Source: a virus
Lineage: Duplodnaviria; Heunggongvirae; Uroviricota; Caudoviricetes
IMG/VR virus record: IMGVR_UViG_2541047932_000008
Strand: one strand, 5' to 3'
Length of the DNA: 14,110 nt
Position numbers and translations under genes: made by a program. Positions 1,117-13,908 of the stretch are shown here, one piece after another; positions within the stretch are counted from its first letter, which is position 1, and every line of letters begins with the position of its first letter. The notes under the pieces are model-generated. The model did no database searches. It saw nothing but the letters and a program-made list of their open reading frames with translations, and was not told the DNA's origin.

Positions 1117-2204
1117 GACCTTTTCCACCATATAAAGGAACAATAAATTCTTTTCTGATAGAGATTTAAATAAAAATACATTATTTTACAAAAAATAATA
1201 TCCATTACAAAAACATCCGATTTTTTTATATTCCCGCTCATCCTGCTAATTTGTATTACAAAAAATAAAACAACTTGAACCAAAGTGATACAAAATTAGA
1301 AAAGAAAACCCCAGGAAGACAAAGAAAACGATCTTTATCAATGAGTTACACTGATTTATTGACTATGATTTTTAGCAAAACAATCGAAAGCAATGTGTAC
1401 CGAGAAGGTTAAAAGATGGAATGGATAGTTATTGACACAGTGATATGCCCATCAAGCGGAATAACGTTTTCAACTGTATGGTGTAAAATAAAGTTGATAA
1501 TCTGGTATCAGTCAGATGTGTTCCTGCCACCCGGAAGTATTCTCACACCTGTTAACTCAGGTGTGATTATGGATAATAAGCTGCTTCCATTAACCATTTA
1601 CAACGTGACACCATTTAACAGAAAATTCTGGTTCCTTATCAGAAATCAAAAAGAGTGCCCCGGGAATTCAGTTAAAACAAAAATAAAATGCCATAATAGT
1701 ATGTGTGTACTGATGATATGCCCGTATGGATTATATAAGTAACAACATATGAATACATAACAGATAAACTATTGACCTTGAGGCTCATCCATATAAAGAA
1801 GAGCTCTCCGAAGAGGTGTGTATTTGCATGCACATTCCTTTTTCGCTCTATGTCATGACCTCCGGCGACTCTATCCCGGCACCAGCAAACCCGCATCATT
1901 CTCGTTTCCGGTGTCTCTAAAACCACAGCACACCTGCCCCCCGCTGAGGGAGGGAAGCACTGTATCCGTACACTCAGCAACAGAAATACCACCCGCTCAC
2001 TGCGCTACATATCAGCAACAATTTTATACCCGAACATTATCATTCAACAGCATGGTTCACAACAACATCATAACCCAGGAAACGAGAATCAGATCAAAAA
2101 AACAGAAATTTTACATGAAAAATACTGTTTATTAATATTGATAGCGTCGTACCACAAAATACGATGAATTATCCCTGAACTTAACATTAATGCCAGTATG
2201 TATT

Positions 2205-8565: not shown

Positions 8566-8753
8566 TTACCACCTCCCTTATTTAATTTTCTACGACACTT
8601 TTTACAATCATCTGGACTTTCGAATGTATCCGGCTCACGCTCATTGCCAAAATACATCCACCCACCGCAAGTACTTGTTATTTCACCTTCAGCAAAATAA
8701 TGATGCTTTTTCGCCATAAGTGGCCTTGCCCAGCCCGGATTCGTTTTACTCAC
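8562..8753 (-). CDS. Hypothetical small Cys-containing protein (63 aa)
   Basis: ATGA overlap with both neighbours. Contains STCGGW...DDCKKCRRK, a possible zinc-ribbon. Confidence 0.6.
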   Translation of the reverse strand: MSKTNPGWARPLMAKKHHYFAEGEITSTCGGWMYFGNEREPDTFESPDDCKKCRRKLNKGGGK

Positions 8754-9394
8754 TTGTTGCCTCCTTTGCGAAGCTCTGCGACTAACTCGTCACATATGTG
8801 CGTCAAAGAGCAAAGTTTGATTGATGGGTGTTCGCGCATCATCTCAACCCCCTGCGCCCGCACTTCAGCCAGGAAAGCATCGGTGGCTGGCGTTTCCCGT
8901 GAAAGGTAAGACCAAACAATGTCGTCTGTTTCACTGGGTTCTTCATGAGAGCAATTTGGGCAGACAGCAATACAACCAGCATGATCTTCTATGAGCATCT
9001 TCAGCCACGAGTTCTCCTCCGCCAGCGTCACGCGACTGGCCTCCAGTTCTGCTACGCGCTGTTTTGCAGCATCCAGTTCAATCGACAATTTTTCCAACTG
9101 CTCTTTATGCTTTTTATATTCCTGATATGCGTGCCAAGACTGACCTTTGCGCACACTATCAGTAATATCAGTAATCTGTTCTGGTGTTAGCGTGGTCAGT
9201 GGCTGTGCTGGAAAAATCATCACTTTCCCGGCATCCCAATCAAAACCCGCCCGAACTGACTGAACCTCAACTGATGGTGTTGAACCGATGCGACCAGGAG
9301 AATGAACAACGATCGTTACATCCATATCGCGATGATGGCTGTGGTTGTTGGACAAAATGCGATTCACCAACTCAGAAAATTTGGAAAATTTCAT
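8750..9394 (-). CDS. Coiled-coil protein, tentatively Ead/Ea22-like
   Basis: 214 aa. RBS AAAGGAGAA 6 nt before ATG 9394. Central heptad-like segment KEQLEKLSIELDAAKQRVAELEASRVTLAEENSWLKML and a CPNCSHEE motif. Family name is tentative. Confidence 0.65.
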   Translation of the reverse strand: MKFSKFSELVNRILSNNHSHHRDMDVTIVVHSPGRIGSTPSVEVQSVRAGFDWDAGKVMIFPAQPLTTLTPEQITDITDSVRKGQSWHAYQEYKKHKEQLEKLSIELDAAKQRVAELEASRVTLAEENSWLKMLIEDHAGCIAVCPNCSHEEPSETDDIVWSYLSRETPATDAFLAEVRAQGVEMMREHPSIKLCSLTHICDELVAELRKGGNK

Positions 9395-9681
9395 GCTGAT
9401 TCTCCTTTCTCTGCTCTCTCCTGTCGGAACATCACTATCATCAGGTCACCTTTTGTCGCTATCCTGGCTGTTGTGCCAGGCTCAATGCGGCTAAGTTCAA
9501 ATGCGTCATAGAACGCCTCTAACGCTTTCTGGCGTCTCTCCTGTTTGCGCCGTTTTTTCCACTGTTTTAGAAAAATGGAACCAAGCCATCACCATGCACG
9601 GGACATGATGTAAAGCCAACCGAGAAGTGCCAGACCGGTATTTAGGGCCGTATCGATCGTTATCGTGGTGTCGATATTCAC
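9391..9681 (-). pseudogene. Small membrane-protein gene interrupted by an in-frame TGA (codon 31 of 96)
   Basis: One frame runs from GTG 9681-9679 (AGGAGG 7 nt upstream, overlapping the TAG of the upstream gene) to a TGA at 9393-9391 that overlaps the ATG of the next gene. It is broken only by TGA at 9591-9589 (...MSRAW*WLGSIFLKQWKKRRKQ...). Confidence 0.35.
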
Positions 9682-10835: not shown

Positions 10836-11582
10836 TTACTTCACAACCCTCTGATTGCTGACATTTGGACGCCAGCTATCCCAGTTAAACGTCACCCACC
10901 GACCACCGTTCATGGTCATGCGGTCCATAATCCTCTCACCAAGAAGCGTGCTCATTGCGGCATGATTCAGGTTTGTTAACATCCCGACACTGCACAGTGA
11001 TGCTGTCCGGCGATCAATTATCTGGTGCAATACCACCTGCTCGTTTTTCGTCTCCCGCTGAACGCCTATTTCATCCAGGACCAGCAAATCAACACTGCAA
11101 AGCTCCTGTAAAAATTTTTCCCCGGATTTGCCGTTGTCGTAGCTGTCATGCAACACGCTCATGACATCAGACACGGTGACGATAATCACGCTGCGCCCCT
11201 TCGCCATCAGCCGGTTACCCATCGCCGCTGCAAGGTGATTTTTCCCGGTGCCGGTTTTACCGCTGAACACAAAATTCGTGCACCCGGTCATCAGTTCGTC
11301 AGCTATGGATTTGGCCTGGCTCAGCGCGTATTTTTGCCCGTCGTTCTGCACCTGATAATTCGCAAACGAGCATTTGCTGTGCAGAGGCTGGATGCCCGAA
11401 CGATTCAGGATTTTTTCCACCCGCAACTGGTGATTCTGGCGGTTAATCTCCTCGCTGCGTTTTCGTCCTTCAGCAAGTTGCCATTCCCGCCACTCCTCCA
11501 CCGTCCGGTACGGTGGAACCGACGCCTGTGGTGCAAGTCTGCGAATACGTTCAAGAACCCCGGCTGCCGCAATGTTTTTCAT
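10836..11582 (-). CDS. DnaC-like replicative helicase loader (AAA+ ATPase)
   Basis: 248 aa. Walker A FSGKTGTGKNHLAAA and Walker B DLLVLDEIG; C-terminal VTFNWDSWR resembles E. coli DnaC. Confidence 0.9.
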   Translation of the reverse strand: MKNIAAAGVLERIRRLAPQASVPPYRTVEEWREWQLAEGRKRSEEINRQNHQLRVEKILNRSGIQPLHSKCSFANYQVQNDGQKYALSQAKSIADELMTGCTNFVFSGKTGTGKNHLAAAMGNRLMAKGRSVIIVTVSDVMSVLHDSYDNGKSGEKFLQELCSVDLLVLDEIGVQRETKNEQVVLHQIIDRRTASLCSVGMLTNLNHAAMSTLLGERIMDRMTMNGGRWVTFNWDSWRPNVSNQRVVK

Positions 11583-11588
11583 GCCACA

Positions 11589-12659
11589 TCACCCCCTGAA
11601 TCCCGGCGGAATTTCGGTATCCGGTTCAGAAATATGATTCACACAACGCTGGTTGTTCGTGCCGCTTACCGGGAGCAACCAGGAGTTTTCAAAATTCCGG
11701 TCCGGCCCAAAAAACGTCGTCGCTCGCTGAACAAATTCCGTTCCCGCTTTCCCGGTCGCCGCCAGGTATCTCGCGTAACGCCTCACACCATCCAGCATGG
11801 TCTCTGGTGGCACCCCCTCGCGCAATCTGGCCTTCCAGGCACTGAAAGCGGATTTCTTCGGGTTTGCCCCGGCACGCAACGGGTATTCCCGCCAGACCTG
11901 TTCGAACACATCCGGATAATCCACTCGTCCCACAGACTGCCCGGTGCTTTCCGGGACTACCCGATCGGCTTCCCGCTGAATGGCGGAATCGGCTTCAGGC
12001 TGCTGCAGTTGGTGTGATTGCTCCGGCCTTGCGGTCATCACCTGCTGCACAGCGCCCGAATCGGCTTTCAGCGCATACGCTGAATCGGCTTCCGGTGTCG
12101 TGCCTGCTGGCTGACCAGGATTGACGGTCTGAACATCCCCTGCCTGGTTCGTGGCGTTTTTTACGCCATGGACCATAGTGTTTTGATCTTCTTGATCTGT
12201 ATCTTTATCTGTATCTTTATCTGTCGTGACTCGTCGTGACATGTGCGTGACATTTCGTGACGCGCCGTGACAATCGCCATTTTGTTCCCGCTTTCTTTCC
12301 CTCTCTCGCTGCGCCCTCTTGCGCTCTGCAGGAGATTTTGCGGTTTGCGAAATATTGCCGTTGTCCTCTTTCAGCACCTGGCGTTTTTCCCATCCAGTGA
12401 TTAAATCACCATCAAGTACCCGCCCCTGCATCGTCTGCAAAATTGAATCAATTACCTCTTCTGTCACGTCGAGCGCACTTGCCAAATCTTCTGTCGTGAC
12501 ATCAATGTGACCTCGCGTGACATTTCGTGACGCGCTCACCAGGAGGTGGATATACACTGCCATCACTGTTGCAATTGGCTGCCCTGACACCCTGGCAATT
12601 GTTCGCCACTTAGGGTCATTTGGCATGTCATGCCATAATCTGAGCCAGGCGTTAGCCAT
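11589..12659 (-). CDS. Replication initiator / replisome-organiser protein (O-like; DnaT-like C-terminal region)
   Basis: Start placed at ATG 12659 (MANAWLRLWHDMPNDPKW...) with AAGAGGTGA upstream; the ORF track's 12665 start is GTG. Sits directly upstream of the DnaC-like gene and contains two iteron clusters in its coding sequence. Confidence 0.8.
   Translation of the reverse strand: MANAWLRLWHDMPNDPKWRTIARVSGQPIATVMAVYIHLLVSASRNVTRGHIDVTTEDLASALDVTEEVIDSILQTMQGRVLDGDLITGWEKRQVLKEDNGNISQTAKSPAERKRAQRERERKREQNGDCHGASRNVTHMSRRVTTDKDTDKDTDQEDQNTMVHGVKNATNQAGDVQTVNPGQPAGTTPEADSAYALKADSGAVQQVMTARPEQSHQLQQPEADSAIQREADRVVPESTGQSVGRVDYPDVFEQVWREYPLRAGANPKKSAFSAWKARLREGVPPETMLDGVRRYARYLAATGKAGTEFVQRATTFFGPDRNFENSWLLPVSGTNNQRCVNHISEPDTEIPPGFRG
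12221..12271. repeat. Iteron cluster 1: five direct CGTGAC repeats at 10-11 bp spacing, next to an AT-rich tandem repeat (candidate origin)
   Basis: CGTGAC at 12225, 12235, 12246, 12256 and 12266. Flanked at 12192-12220 by (TCTGTATCTTTA) x2.4. Shares the 21-mer GCGTGACATTTCGTGACGCGC with cluster 2. Confidence 0.5.
12491..12531. repeat. Iteron cluster 2: four CGTGAC/TGTGAC repeats at 10-11 bp spacing
   Basis: Repeats at 12495, 12506, 12516 and 12526. Includes the same 21-mer as cluster 1. An inverted GTCACG copy lies at 12463-12468. Confidence 0.5.
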
Positions 12660-12730: not shown

Positions 12731-13156
12731 TCAATGTACTGCCACAGCATTTCCTGCCGGGCCACCACGGTTCATCTGATTGAAACCGGCGATTGCCACT
12801 GCGACAAAATCATCAGCGTCTCTCACCAGTCGCTCCCGCGTCTCCACCAGCTCCCGAAAATAAGCTGAACTGTGGCTGCGCATTCTGGCCACCAGCAAAG
12901 GTGGCATTGCCTTTTCGATCGCTGGTAACAACGCCTGAATTTTTTCAACTGCATCAGGGGTGTCTTTCTCTACCCAGCGGAAAATTTTCTGTGTATTGCG
13001 AGCCAGGGCTTCCGGATGGCTGTCGTCATACAGTTCAGGAAACGTCATACCCAACTCAAAATAAGCCTGGGTTATTCCAGCTGCTGGAACTTTTTCGCCA
13101 TCAGGACGCGCCCAGGCATTCATCGCCATGCGGATGTGTTCATGCTTGATTTTCAT
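12731..13156 (-). CDS. YdaT-like protein (CII-position gene of Rac-type immunity regions)
   Basis: 141 aa, MKIKHEHIRMAMNAWARPDG.... GGAG lies 8 nt before ATG 13156. The start overlaps the 3' end of the Cro-like gene by 17 nt. Confidence 0.7.
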   Translation of the reverse strand: MKIKHEHIRMAMNAWARPDGEKVPAAGITQAYFELGMTFPELYDDSHPEALARNTQKIFRWVEKDTPDAVEKIQALLPAIEKAMPPLLVARMRSHSSAYFRELVETRERLVRDADDFVAVAIAGFNQMNRGGPAGNAVAVH

Positions 13157-13415
13157 GAATCAACTCCGGTGTATTTGGTGTGTTAGCCTTATCTCCAGCA
13201 GGCAACCCGTCAGTTGGATTCGGGTATAAATCTGGTCGCAATTCATGAGGAGTAACCCCAGTTGCAATATAAATTTGACGAACCCGTTCTCCCGTCGGCA
13301 CTCGACCATTGTATTCATTTGCCCATTTGTGTATTTGAGATGGCCAAGCCCCTATTGCACGCCCTAGCGGACGAATACCACCAGCAATCTTTATTGCTTT
13401 GTCCAATGCTGTCAT
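13140..13415 (-). CDS. Cro-like / YdaS-like small HTH regulator
   Basis: 91 aa, MTALDKAIKIAGGIRPLGRAIGAWPSQIHKWANE.... GGAGG lies 5 nt before ATG 13415. Divergent from the repressor gene. Confidence 0.75.
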   Translation of the reverse strand: MTALDKAIKIAGGIRPLGRAIGAWPSQIHKWANEYNGRVPTGERVRQIYIATGVTPHELRPDLYPNPTDGLPAGDKANTPNTPELIHENQA

Positions 13416-13443: not shown

Positions 13444-13472
13444 ATTGTTCACTTAAAACGAACACAAGTCAA
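13444..13472 (-). promoter_or_regulatory. PR-like early promoter with embedded operator (GTTC-N9-GAAC)
   Basis: Minus strand: TTGACT-tgtGTTCgttttaagtG-AACAAT. The operator dyad (plus 13447-13463) fills the spacer and overlaps the -10. Confidence 0.45.
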
Positions 13473-13484
13473 CACCTCGAGGAA

Positions 13485-13512
13485 TTGTTAGTGTTCACTG
13501 AACGGTTATAAT
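13485..13512 (+). promoter_or_regulatory. Repressor-gene promoter (PRM-like), predicted leaderless transcript
   Basis: TTGTTA (13485-13490), 16-nt spacer containing the palindrome GTTCACTGAAC (13493-13503), then consensus TATAAT (13507-13512). The ATG at 13519 lies 7 nt after the -10 and has no SD. Confidence 0.5.
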
Positions 13513-13518
13513 TGCCAA

Positions 13519-13908
13519 ATGGACATGAGAAAAAAGCAATACGACACCCCGCTAGCAGAAAGGTTAGATACGATCTCTCAACAGCATCATTTAAGTGGTT
13601 CAGATTTAGCGCGTATCGCTGGTGTAGGTCGTTCATCAGTCAACGCATGGAAAAAAAGAGGAACAATCAGTAAAGATTCCGCAGCCAAAATTGCAGAAGC
13701 CACAAACGTTTCCCTTTCTTGGCTACTGACAGGGAAAGAAGAGACAAATAGAGAGGCGCTTGATGATGACGAGAAGGCCCTGCTTGATGTTTACAGAAAC
13801 CTGCCACCTGTAGAACGTAGAAATATGCTGGCAGCTTTTCAAATGCGACTCCAAAAACTGACCGAATTTTACTCAGAATACGTCGACCCAATAACACGAC
13901 AAAAATAA
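13519..13908 (+). CDS. Prophage repressor, XRE-family HTH, no peptidase domain
   Basis: 129 aa. HTH segment LSGSDLARIAGVGRSSVNAWKKRGTISKDSAAKIAEATNVSLSWLLTG. No Ser/Lys peptidase motifs, and too short for a LexA-like C-terminal domain. Confidence 0.85.
   Translation: MDMRKKQYDTPLAERLDTISQQHHLSGSDLARIAGVGRSSVNAWKKRGTISKDSAAKIAEATNVSLSWLLTGKEETNREALDDDEKALLDVYRNLPPVERRNMLAAFQMRLQKLTEFYSEYVDPITRQK

Follow-up and report, generated by a model that had tools for sequence, protein, structure and literature searches.

Where in its genome does a prophage with a non-lambda-type initiator begin to replicate, and why would its initiator gene carry the same short repeat in two separate clusters? The question is posed by a 14,110-nucleotide stretch of Caudoviricetes DNA (IMG/VR record IMGVR_UViG_2541047932_000008; the whole stretch is hereafter called the window), in which the initiator ("phage replisome organizer") gene contains two arrays of a hexamer spaced at about one helical turn. 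The module to which this gene belongs occurs in over half of the complete Escherichia coli genomes searched, in whose non-lambda-type prophages origins and the control of replication have hardly been characterised. Our analysis makes it probable that the gene harbors a Rac/lambda-like prophage origin, consisting of a core array next to an AT-rich tract and a second, upstream array that would also bind the initiator.

The location of an origin inside the initiator gene is already established for lambda, SPP1, TP901-1, and Tuc2009. Lambda O, SPP1 G38P, TP901-1 ORF13, and Tuc2009 Rep bind direct repeats within their own genes, and SPP1 oriL lies inside gene 38, where a 356-bp fragment is enough in vitro (PMC7466680, PMC5737612, PMC6316719, PMC8965321). 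For lambda this arrangement is textbook knowledge (PMC3349717, PMC7466680), and iteron number varies between relatives, as Stx phages, with 6-iteron origins, exemplify. No description of the present origin came up in literature searches whose subjects were the Eru replication regions of Stx phages, replisome organizers, iterons of the GTCACG type, the DnaT tail, and initiators resembling DnaD, with the proviso that coverage is incomplete and novelty unproven; nor did the searchable literature contain a 10-bp hexamer lattice, a family-wide second array on the N-terminal domain, its repeated gain, or matching motif classes in the two arrays.

Two repeat arrays within the initiator gene

An initial annotation, made from the sequence alone, had described clusters of CGTGAC direct repeats at 10-11 bp spacing in this gene, and both the positions and the shuffle statistics bear it out. 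CGTGAC on the plus strand reads GTCACG on the gene strand, and the arrays are named here in gene orientation, such that array A (cluster 2 of that annotation) lies 5′ of array B (cluster 1), 229 bp upstream of it (Table 1). The five CGTGAC copies of array B start at plus-strand positions 12225, 12235, 12246, 12256, and 12266 (spacing 10, 11, 10, and 10 bp), and the three of array A at 12495, 12516, and 12526, with a degenerate TGTGAC at 12506. Both arrays are thus composed of at least three direct repeats with roughly helical spacing, five units in array B and four, one of them degenerate, in array A. The window holds 15 copies of CGTGAC where 6.7 ± 2.4 are expected, a count attained in none of 200 shuffles, and the two-unit pattern CGTGACNNNNCGTGAC (at most one mismatch) occurs five times, every time within the two clusters, against 0.07 expected occurrences. 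The 21-mer that the clusters had been said to share is indeed exact: GCGTGACATTTCGTGACGCGC is found at 12245-12265 and again at 12515-12535, an offset of 270 bp (90 codons), where none is expected. Array B is encoded by the codons of amino acids (aa) 130-146, at the start of a linker, and array A by those of aa 43-55, which form the end of helix 3 and the loop preceding helix 4 of a winged-helix domain. The single inverted hexamer copy between the arrays may be a chance occurrence. The 14-kb window has no third, distant array of the SPP1 oriR type, and neither has the genome of Escherichia phage Tritos (46 kb), throughout which arrays A and B are the only GTCACG clusters.

Table 1. Features of the initiator locus, with coordinates in the window
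Feature	Position	Strand	Description
Initiator ("phage replisome organizer") gene	11589-12659	-	Open reading frame, 356 aa
Iteron array A, putative auxiliary upstream array	12495-12531	-	Three GTCACG plus degenerate GTCACA, 10-11 bp apart; gene nucleotides (nt) 129-165
Single inverted hexamer copy between arrays	12463-12468	+	In D-V-T codons; phage Tritos also has a copy
Candidate iteron-recognition helix (basic helix, aa 110-126, PAERKRAQRERERKREQ)	12282-12332	-	AlphaFold2 helix and mutual information
K114 and Q117 codons	12309-12320	-	Three positions apart on the basic helix
Iteron array B, proposed core origin array	12225-12271	-	Five GTCACG units; gene nt 389-435
Putative DNA unwinding element	12181-12224		AT-rich, (TCTTTATCTGTA)x3; encodes TDKDTDKDTDQEDQ
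Imperfect palindrome past the AT tract	12145-12175		13-bp arms, A5/T5 loop; TGGTCCATGGCGT-AAAAA-ACGCCACGAACCA
C-terminal 24 residues (...VNHISEPDTEIPPGFRG), aa 333-356	11592-11663	-	Matches the C-terminus of E. coli primosomal protein DnaT
DnaC-like helicase loader gene	10836-11582	-	Directly downstream of the initiator gene
CII-like gene (YdaT family)	12731-13156	-	Upstream, same transcription unit; Pfam YdaT_toxin
Cro-like gene (YdaS family)	13140-13415	-	Upstream, same transcription unit; Pfam YdaS_toxin

Both arrays are under selection at the level of DNA. The hexamer is read in all three frames, as S-R, V-T, and G-H, and the 10-11 bp periodicity therefore resides in the DNA and not in the codons; the recurring SRNVT peptide to which the initial annotation had rightly drawn attention (two occurrences in the 356-aa product) is a by-product of the repeats. 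When codons were shuffled synonymously, with protein and codon usage fixed, none of 1000 shuffles reached the window's eight GTCACG (mean 1.5, maximum 6), and the outcome was the same in four of six homologues, the top shuffle equalling the observed count in homologue L156 and stopping one short of it in L123. Relative synonymous codon entropy, computed across 23 genes of the GTCACG class that represent different genera, stands at 0.22 in codons 43-55 of array A and at 0.80 in the remaining N-terminal-domain codons (Mann-Whitney p = 1e-7); V47 GTC, T48 ACG, G50 GGT, and H51 CAC, for instance, are frozen in 22 of 22 genes. Furthermore, close relatives are distinguished by 7-residue indels inside the arrays; seven codons equal 21 bp, two units and two helical turns, which explains the alternation of 10- and 11-bp spacing. 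Between motif classes the encoded peptide changes completely while the periodicity of the DNA stays. Shuffles, frozen sites, and five motif classes that follow initiator clades (see below) concur that the repeats are selected as DNA and co-vary with the initiator. The family provides a clean natural example of dual coding: a 10.5-bp-periodic, putatively protein-binding lattice has to be accommodated in the codons of a protein loop and a linker, and the two-unit indel preserves both reading frame and helical phase.

The N-terminal-domain family comprises 2,260 clusters at 50% identity (E <= 1e-3), and it was sampled by scanning one genome per species, which yielded 80 diverse loci; counts given as out of about 80 also include the window and two phages. 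In 52 of about 80 genes arrays A and B are both present and share one NNNACG hexamer, and array B occupies the equivalent position in every informative homologue, those devoid of array A included. The presence of two clusters, initially regarded as unusual, is therefore not so in this family, about two thirds of the sampled homologues having both. Five motif classes exist, GTCACG, GTAACG, CGAACG, GCAACG, and GTGACG. Motif calls made separately in the A and B regions agree, and the 10-mer consensus units of A and B share 7.86 of 10 positions, compared to 6.31 ± 0.24 (maximum 7.06) in 2000 permuted pairings. The class tracks the initiator clade and not the host, as Pseudomonas and Acidovorax each host GTCACG-type and CGAACG-type genes. 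In Pseudomonas phage phita81A (N-terminal domain 69.5% identical) GTCACG recurs at gene nt 129, 139, 149, and 160 and at 388, 398, 408, and 418, and in Ralstonia phage Hennie (38% identical) GCAACG is found at both equivalent places, 130-182 and 401-431. Most genes that possess array A carry it at residues 43-55; it is found at residues 22-32 in Stenotrophomonas, in Lysobacter (five copies, inverted), and in a further gene (two copies, inverted), and at residues 64-75 in one metagenome-assembled genome. These three protein positions, with inversion in places, suggest that the upstream array has been gained repeatedly and independently.

The putative unwinding tract and the initiator protein

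The AT-rich tandem repeat that had been seen to abut cluster 1 is readily confirmed: Tandem Repeats Finder reports 2.9 copies of TCTTTATCTGTA at 12190-12224, adjoining array B. The tract at 12181-12224 is 27% GC and 76% pyrimidine on the plus strand, and hence purine-rich on the gene strand, and its first 41 nt (12181-12221) are the least stable 41-mer of the initiator gene (dG -44.7 vs. a window mean of -56.5, standard deviation 4.3; 2.7 standard deviations away). In homologues, the 40 nt 3′ of array B are 63% AT versus 42% for the gene, and 74% purine on the coding strand versus 56%, a pattern found at 58 of 59 loci. A tract of this kind adjoins array B only; array A, a second cluster of the same repeats, stands away from the putative unwinding site and has none of its own. 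Of the two possibilities raised earlier, a duplicated or a bipartite origin, the bipartite one is thus retained and the duplicated one is unlikely, because only array B has such a tract.

The palindrome past the AT tract is kept in Shigella phage 75/02 Stx and Escherichia phage PhiR5_2, with one compensatory change (GCGT/ACGC to GCGA/TCGC). The initiators of these two phages (L004, L169) share the C-terminal module only, with an unrelated N-terminal domain and no GTCACG arrays. The palindrome DNA doubles as codons for a conserved peptide, LVHG(E/V)K. A natural E. coli allele (P0020, 302 aa) has an in-frame deletion relative to window aa 134-188 that removes the AT tract, the palindrome, and the greater part of array B; this prophage copy probably has a defective origin, and is reminiscent of the ori- in-frame deletions of lambda.

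The initiator is organized into a putative winged-helix domain at the N-terminus (aa 1 to ~100), a basic helix (110-126), a disordered linker (128-244), a helical C-terminal domain (250-316), and a DnaT-like tail. AlphaFold2 models the N-terminal helical and hairpin domain (to residue ~90) confidently and the helix 110-126 with a moderate predicted local distance difference test score, and renders 128-244 as disordered and 250-316 as helical. The whole protein is matched end to end by phrog_3729, "replication initiation protein"; no Pfam family scores above threshold (E <= 0.01), and a profile search of PDB sequences with the initiator found nothing. The initial annotation had called the protein O-like, which holds as an analogy only: homology to lambda O was rejected, as Phage_rep_O is absent even at E <= 10, and structure comparison matches the N-terminal domain best to that of DnaD, a winged helix known from replication initiation, whose fold it may share. 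Membership in Phage_rep_org_N was likewise rejected, since scores lie beneath the family cut-offs in all 77 N-terminal domains (PF09681 at 16.5 bits for the window's domain alone, with a cut-off of 23.3, and TIGR01714 at 15.4 bits, with a cut-off of 49.8; 3 of 77 homologues reach E < 0.01 for PF09681). The weak alignment nonetheless covers the whole model (residues 5-123 to 1-119 of 121), and a distant kinship is possible on that ground.

Mutual information across the 77 N-terminal domains, with the array-A-encoded columns set aside, identifies residues 114 and 117 as the best predictors of motif class. They are K and Q in GTCACG genes, V and F/Y/H in GTAACG genes, S/A/G and W in CGAACG genes, and S and H in GCAACG genes, and so co-vary with the first three bases of NNNACG across four motif classes; the neighboring arginines are nearly invariant. 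This covariation singles out the basic helix as the putative part that reads the hexamer, and the two residues as a candidate specificity code.

At the opposite end of the protein, residues 333-356 align to positions 156-179 of 179 in the DnaT model NF002770, at 18.3 bits versus a cut-off of 201 (E 1.4e-3); the initiator is not a DnaT family member, and the likeness consists of a shared C-terminal motif only. The motif, S.PD..IP.GF(R/K)G, is retained in relatives with quite different C-terminal domains, and the tail may recruit DnaB-DnaC as a docking peptide in imitation of DnaT. As to the N-terminus, RefSeq/PGAP places the start of the gene at Met12 (12626) instead of the ATG at 12659, which is probably 11 codons too short, because W5, R7, and W9 are conserved across the 77 homologues and a GAGGTG Shine-Dalgarno sequence lies ahead of the ATG at 12659.

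In phage genomes, a tblastn comparison indicates that the N- and C-terminal halves recombine independently. The N-terminal domain and the origin travel as one module with varying partners (L001, L003, L172, and L166, which is Tritos 32105-33638), namely, a DnaC-like loader in the window and a DnaB-like helicase in Pseudomonas and Ralstonia phages; no recognizable loader was found in Tritos or in the six further closely related Escherichia phages. O157 prophages have this N-terminal domain in fusion with a C-terminal domain that is DnaT-like and binds single-stranded DNA (PF17948). A search of plasmids returned no dedicated plasmid replicon, only copies on chromosomes or in prophages, along with two circular genomes of Pseudomonas phages. 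The latter, CP137943.1 and CP124671.1 (L172), are 50.9-kb circular "plasmids" of clinical Pseudomonas aeruginosa that correspond to lambdoid phage genomes with the initiator and origin module, and may be replicating or excised prophages, or phage-plasmids.

A proposed origin and its alternatives

The repeats and their periodicity, the DNA-level selection, the match of A and B motifs across classes, the conserved AT tract, and the gene context are all observed, and they support the candidate lambda-style origin that had been suggested for this gene. In the arrangement that we favor, the core origin would comprise array B, the AT tract, and the palindrome, all within codons of the disordered linker. 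The initiator would bind array B with its molecules aligned along a single face of the DNA, one to each helical turn, and the bound molecules would help to open the adjoining AT-rich, strand-skewed tract. The C-terminal domain and the DnaT-like tail would bring DnaB by way of the phage DnaC-like loader, and rightward-type early transcription would run through the origin. Array A would most likely cooperate with array B by looping or wrapping the DNA between them, leading to higher occupancy and favored opening.

Several observations weigh against this arrangement. About one third of the homologues are without a clear array A, and because in at least 12 homologues array B stands alone, any second cluster being absent within ±1.5 kb, array A cannot be essential to origin function in the family. 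Across homologues the A-to-B distance ranges from 157 to 350 bp and clusters near multiples of 10 (R = 0.56 for a 10.0-bp period); since the sequences are not phylogenetically independent, a helical register between the arrays is a hint only and is not used as evidence. Concerted evolution of the two arrays could in part be gene conversion, and the covariation of residues 114 and 117 with motif class is confounded by phylogeny. Furthermore, the DnaD winged-helix N-terminal domain is an oligomerisation module and not a DNA reader, and neither DnaA boxes nor oriC-type 13-mers are enriched. Initiator binding, melting of the tract, origin firing, and the direction of any effect of array A are, moreover, steps that we infer from the sequence.

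The direction of that effect separates the favored arrangement from one in which array B and the AT tract are still the origin, with array A acting as a negative or regulatory site, either by titrating or handcuffing the initiator, as P1 incA and F incC do, or as a roadblock within the initiator codons through which initiator and loader expression would be subject to feedback or early replication made unidirectional. A separate second iteron cluster is the classic copy-control layout of iteron plasmids (P1 incA, F incC), which the layout of array A resembles. Its dispensability in about a third of homologues and its invertibility would suit a binding sink as well as a loop anchor, and G38P at the second SPP1 site, oriR, has been proposed to stall forks (PMC6316719). 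However, limiting copy number would bring no obvious gain to a lytic temperate lambdoid phage whose CI-like repressor already represses, a roadblock could already be provided by array B, which the same transcript contains, and the extra iterons of Stx phages serve efficient replication and not restraint (PMC7466680). On balance, we regard a restraining array A as unlikely.

The remaining alternatives detach the arrays from replication altogether. They might bind another protein, a host factor or a different phage regulator, for transcription control, packaging, or partition, given that some regulators and centromere-binding proteins use periodic 10-bp repeats; yet motif class goes with the initiator N-terminal-domain clade and not with the host taxon, the arrays always lie within the initiator gene beside an AT-rich tract, the complete genome of Tritos has none elsewhere, and the arrays stay with the N-terminal domain when the downstream partner is a DnaC-like loader, a DnaB-like helicase, or neither, all of which makes this very improbable. 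Still harder to credit is that the repeats are a by-product of an SRNVT-like peptide, or a neutral duplication kept alike by gene conversion, with array A functionless as DNA. The arrays do lie 90 codons apart, in frame, and share an exact 21-mer, as a recent duplication or conversion would leave them, and repeated peptides are visible in protein alignments. Against this, the reading frames, the synonymous shuffles (in the window and four of six homologues), and the synonymous sites frozen over 23 taxa largely refute a protein-repeat explanation, which was rejected; the peptide differs wholly between classes while the DNA periodicity persists, and array A occurs at non-homologous protein positions and also inverted.

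A broader proposal can be drawn from the favored arrangement, which, taken jointly, is tentative and somewhat doubtful: a large Proteobacterial prophage initiator family would use an undescribed two-part origin confined to the initiator reading frame, in which the repeatedly evolved upstream array serves as an enhancer in cis by looping or wrapping about 230 bp of coding DNA, and in which the repeats are read by the basic helix instead of the winged helix, residues 114 and 117 specifying bases 1-3 of NNNACG. If true, origin specificity would be reprogrammable with two substitutions. The candidate code and an accessory-iteron role are testable, the latter by synonymous recoding alone, and, for annotation, the conservation of the layout allows origins to be predicted in thousands of prophages. 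Possible uses include compatible mini-replicons and origin-based interference with prophage induction, comparable to phage-encoded resistance in lactococci.

Known origins and the gene neighborhood

The likeness to lambda is one of layout. In both, the origin, here a proposed one, sits in the middle of the initiator gene, in linker codons between DNA-binding and recruiting domains; an AT-rich tract of ~40 bp with a purine/pyrimidine strand bias lies on the transcriptionally downstream side of the direct repeats; and the gene belongs to an early rightward-type operon, after cro and cII homologues and with the helicase-loading gene next. The components differ. The initiator is not homologous to O and may have a fold like that of the DnaD N-terminal domain, its repeat units are 10-11 bp with a direct 6-bp core whereas those of lambda are 18-19 bp with internal dyad symmetry, a second array lies ~230 bp upstream within N-terminal-domain codons where lambda has none, and the partner is a DnaC-type loader instead of P.

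A second parallel is offered by SPP1 G38P, TP901-1 ORF13, and Tuc2009 Rep2009, whose repeats also lie in the initiator's own gene beside an AT-rich unwinding element (PMC5737612, PMC6316719, PMC8965321), although binding is putative in the present case. There too a helicase loader and/or helicase gene comes next, and the initiator has weak full-length similarity to Phage_rep_org_N, the SPP1 G38P type, beneath cut-offs in the 77 N-terminal domains. Their hosts are Firmicutes, in contrast to the Proteobacteria here. SPP1 likewise has two separate repeat sites, which the same protein binds; its oriR, however, is ~13 kb off, intergenic, and endowed with its own AT-rich region, whereas array A is ~230 bp off, in the same gene, and without an AT tract. 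Two clusters of the same repeats, one at the unwinding site and the other remote in cis, are also found in P4 (ori and crr), P1 (incC/incA), and F (incB/incC), where the remote cluster is a helper in P4 (crr) and a control locus in P1 (incA). Unlike in these replicons, both clusters are here overprinted on initiator codons, ~160-350 bp apart in a roughly 10-bp register, and the initiator families are unrelated.

The gene order, with a divergent CI-like repressor followed by Cro-like, CII-like, initiator, and DnaC-like loader genes, is that of racR-ydaS-ydaT-ydaU-ydaV(-ydaW) in the Rac prophage of E. coli K-12, with which the locus shares YdaS, YdaT, a DnaC-like YdaV, DUF1627, and DUF977; unlike the initiator, YdaU has a DUF1376 N-terminal domain. 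The loader scores above the family cut-offs (NF009043 PRK12377, 509.5 bits vs. 389; PF01695 IstB_IS21, 69.6 vs. 24.1 bits, E 3.7e-19), and DUF1627 and DUF977 genes lie downstream of it. The Cro-like/CII-like pair also matches phrog_35 and phrog_163.

Seven sequenced Escherichia phages match the segment with 98-99.7% identity, and it is present in 3,084 of 5,426 complete E. coli genomes, enterohaemorrhagic and Shiga toxin-producing lineages (EHEC/STEC) included. In E. coli the site is a lambdoid prophage beside tRNA-Ser and mtfA. A scan of viral contigs returned near-identical E. coli copies only and added no diversity.

Upstream of the Cro-like gene, a promoter-like site is found on the minus strand at 13472-13444, one of the divergent promoter-like sites between the Cro-like and CI-like genes (window 13444-13519). 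The plus-strand site, TTGTTA-16-TATAAT, stops 7 nt before the CI-like ATG at 13519, a gap that suggests a leaderless repressor mRNA, as from lambda pRM. At window 8750-9400 (cf. L167 8851-9782), a near-identical RefSeq prophage copy is annotated with an eae-like fragment and a DUF4752 pseudogene with an internal stop, which suggests decay in the nin-like region of the prophage. The least stable DNA of the window is an AT-rich island at 1100-2150, near the late end of the prophage, with several 41-mers at 10-22% GC around an iraM-like gene (1416-1742, plus strand); it looks like a horizontally acquired moron.

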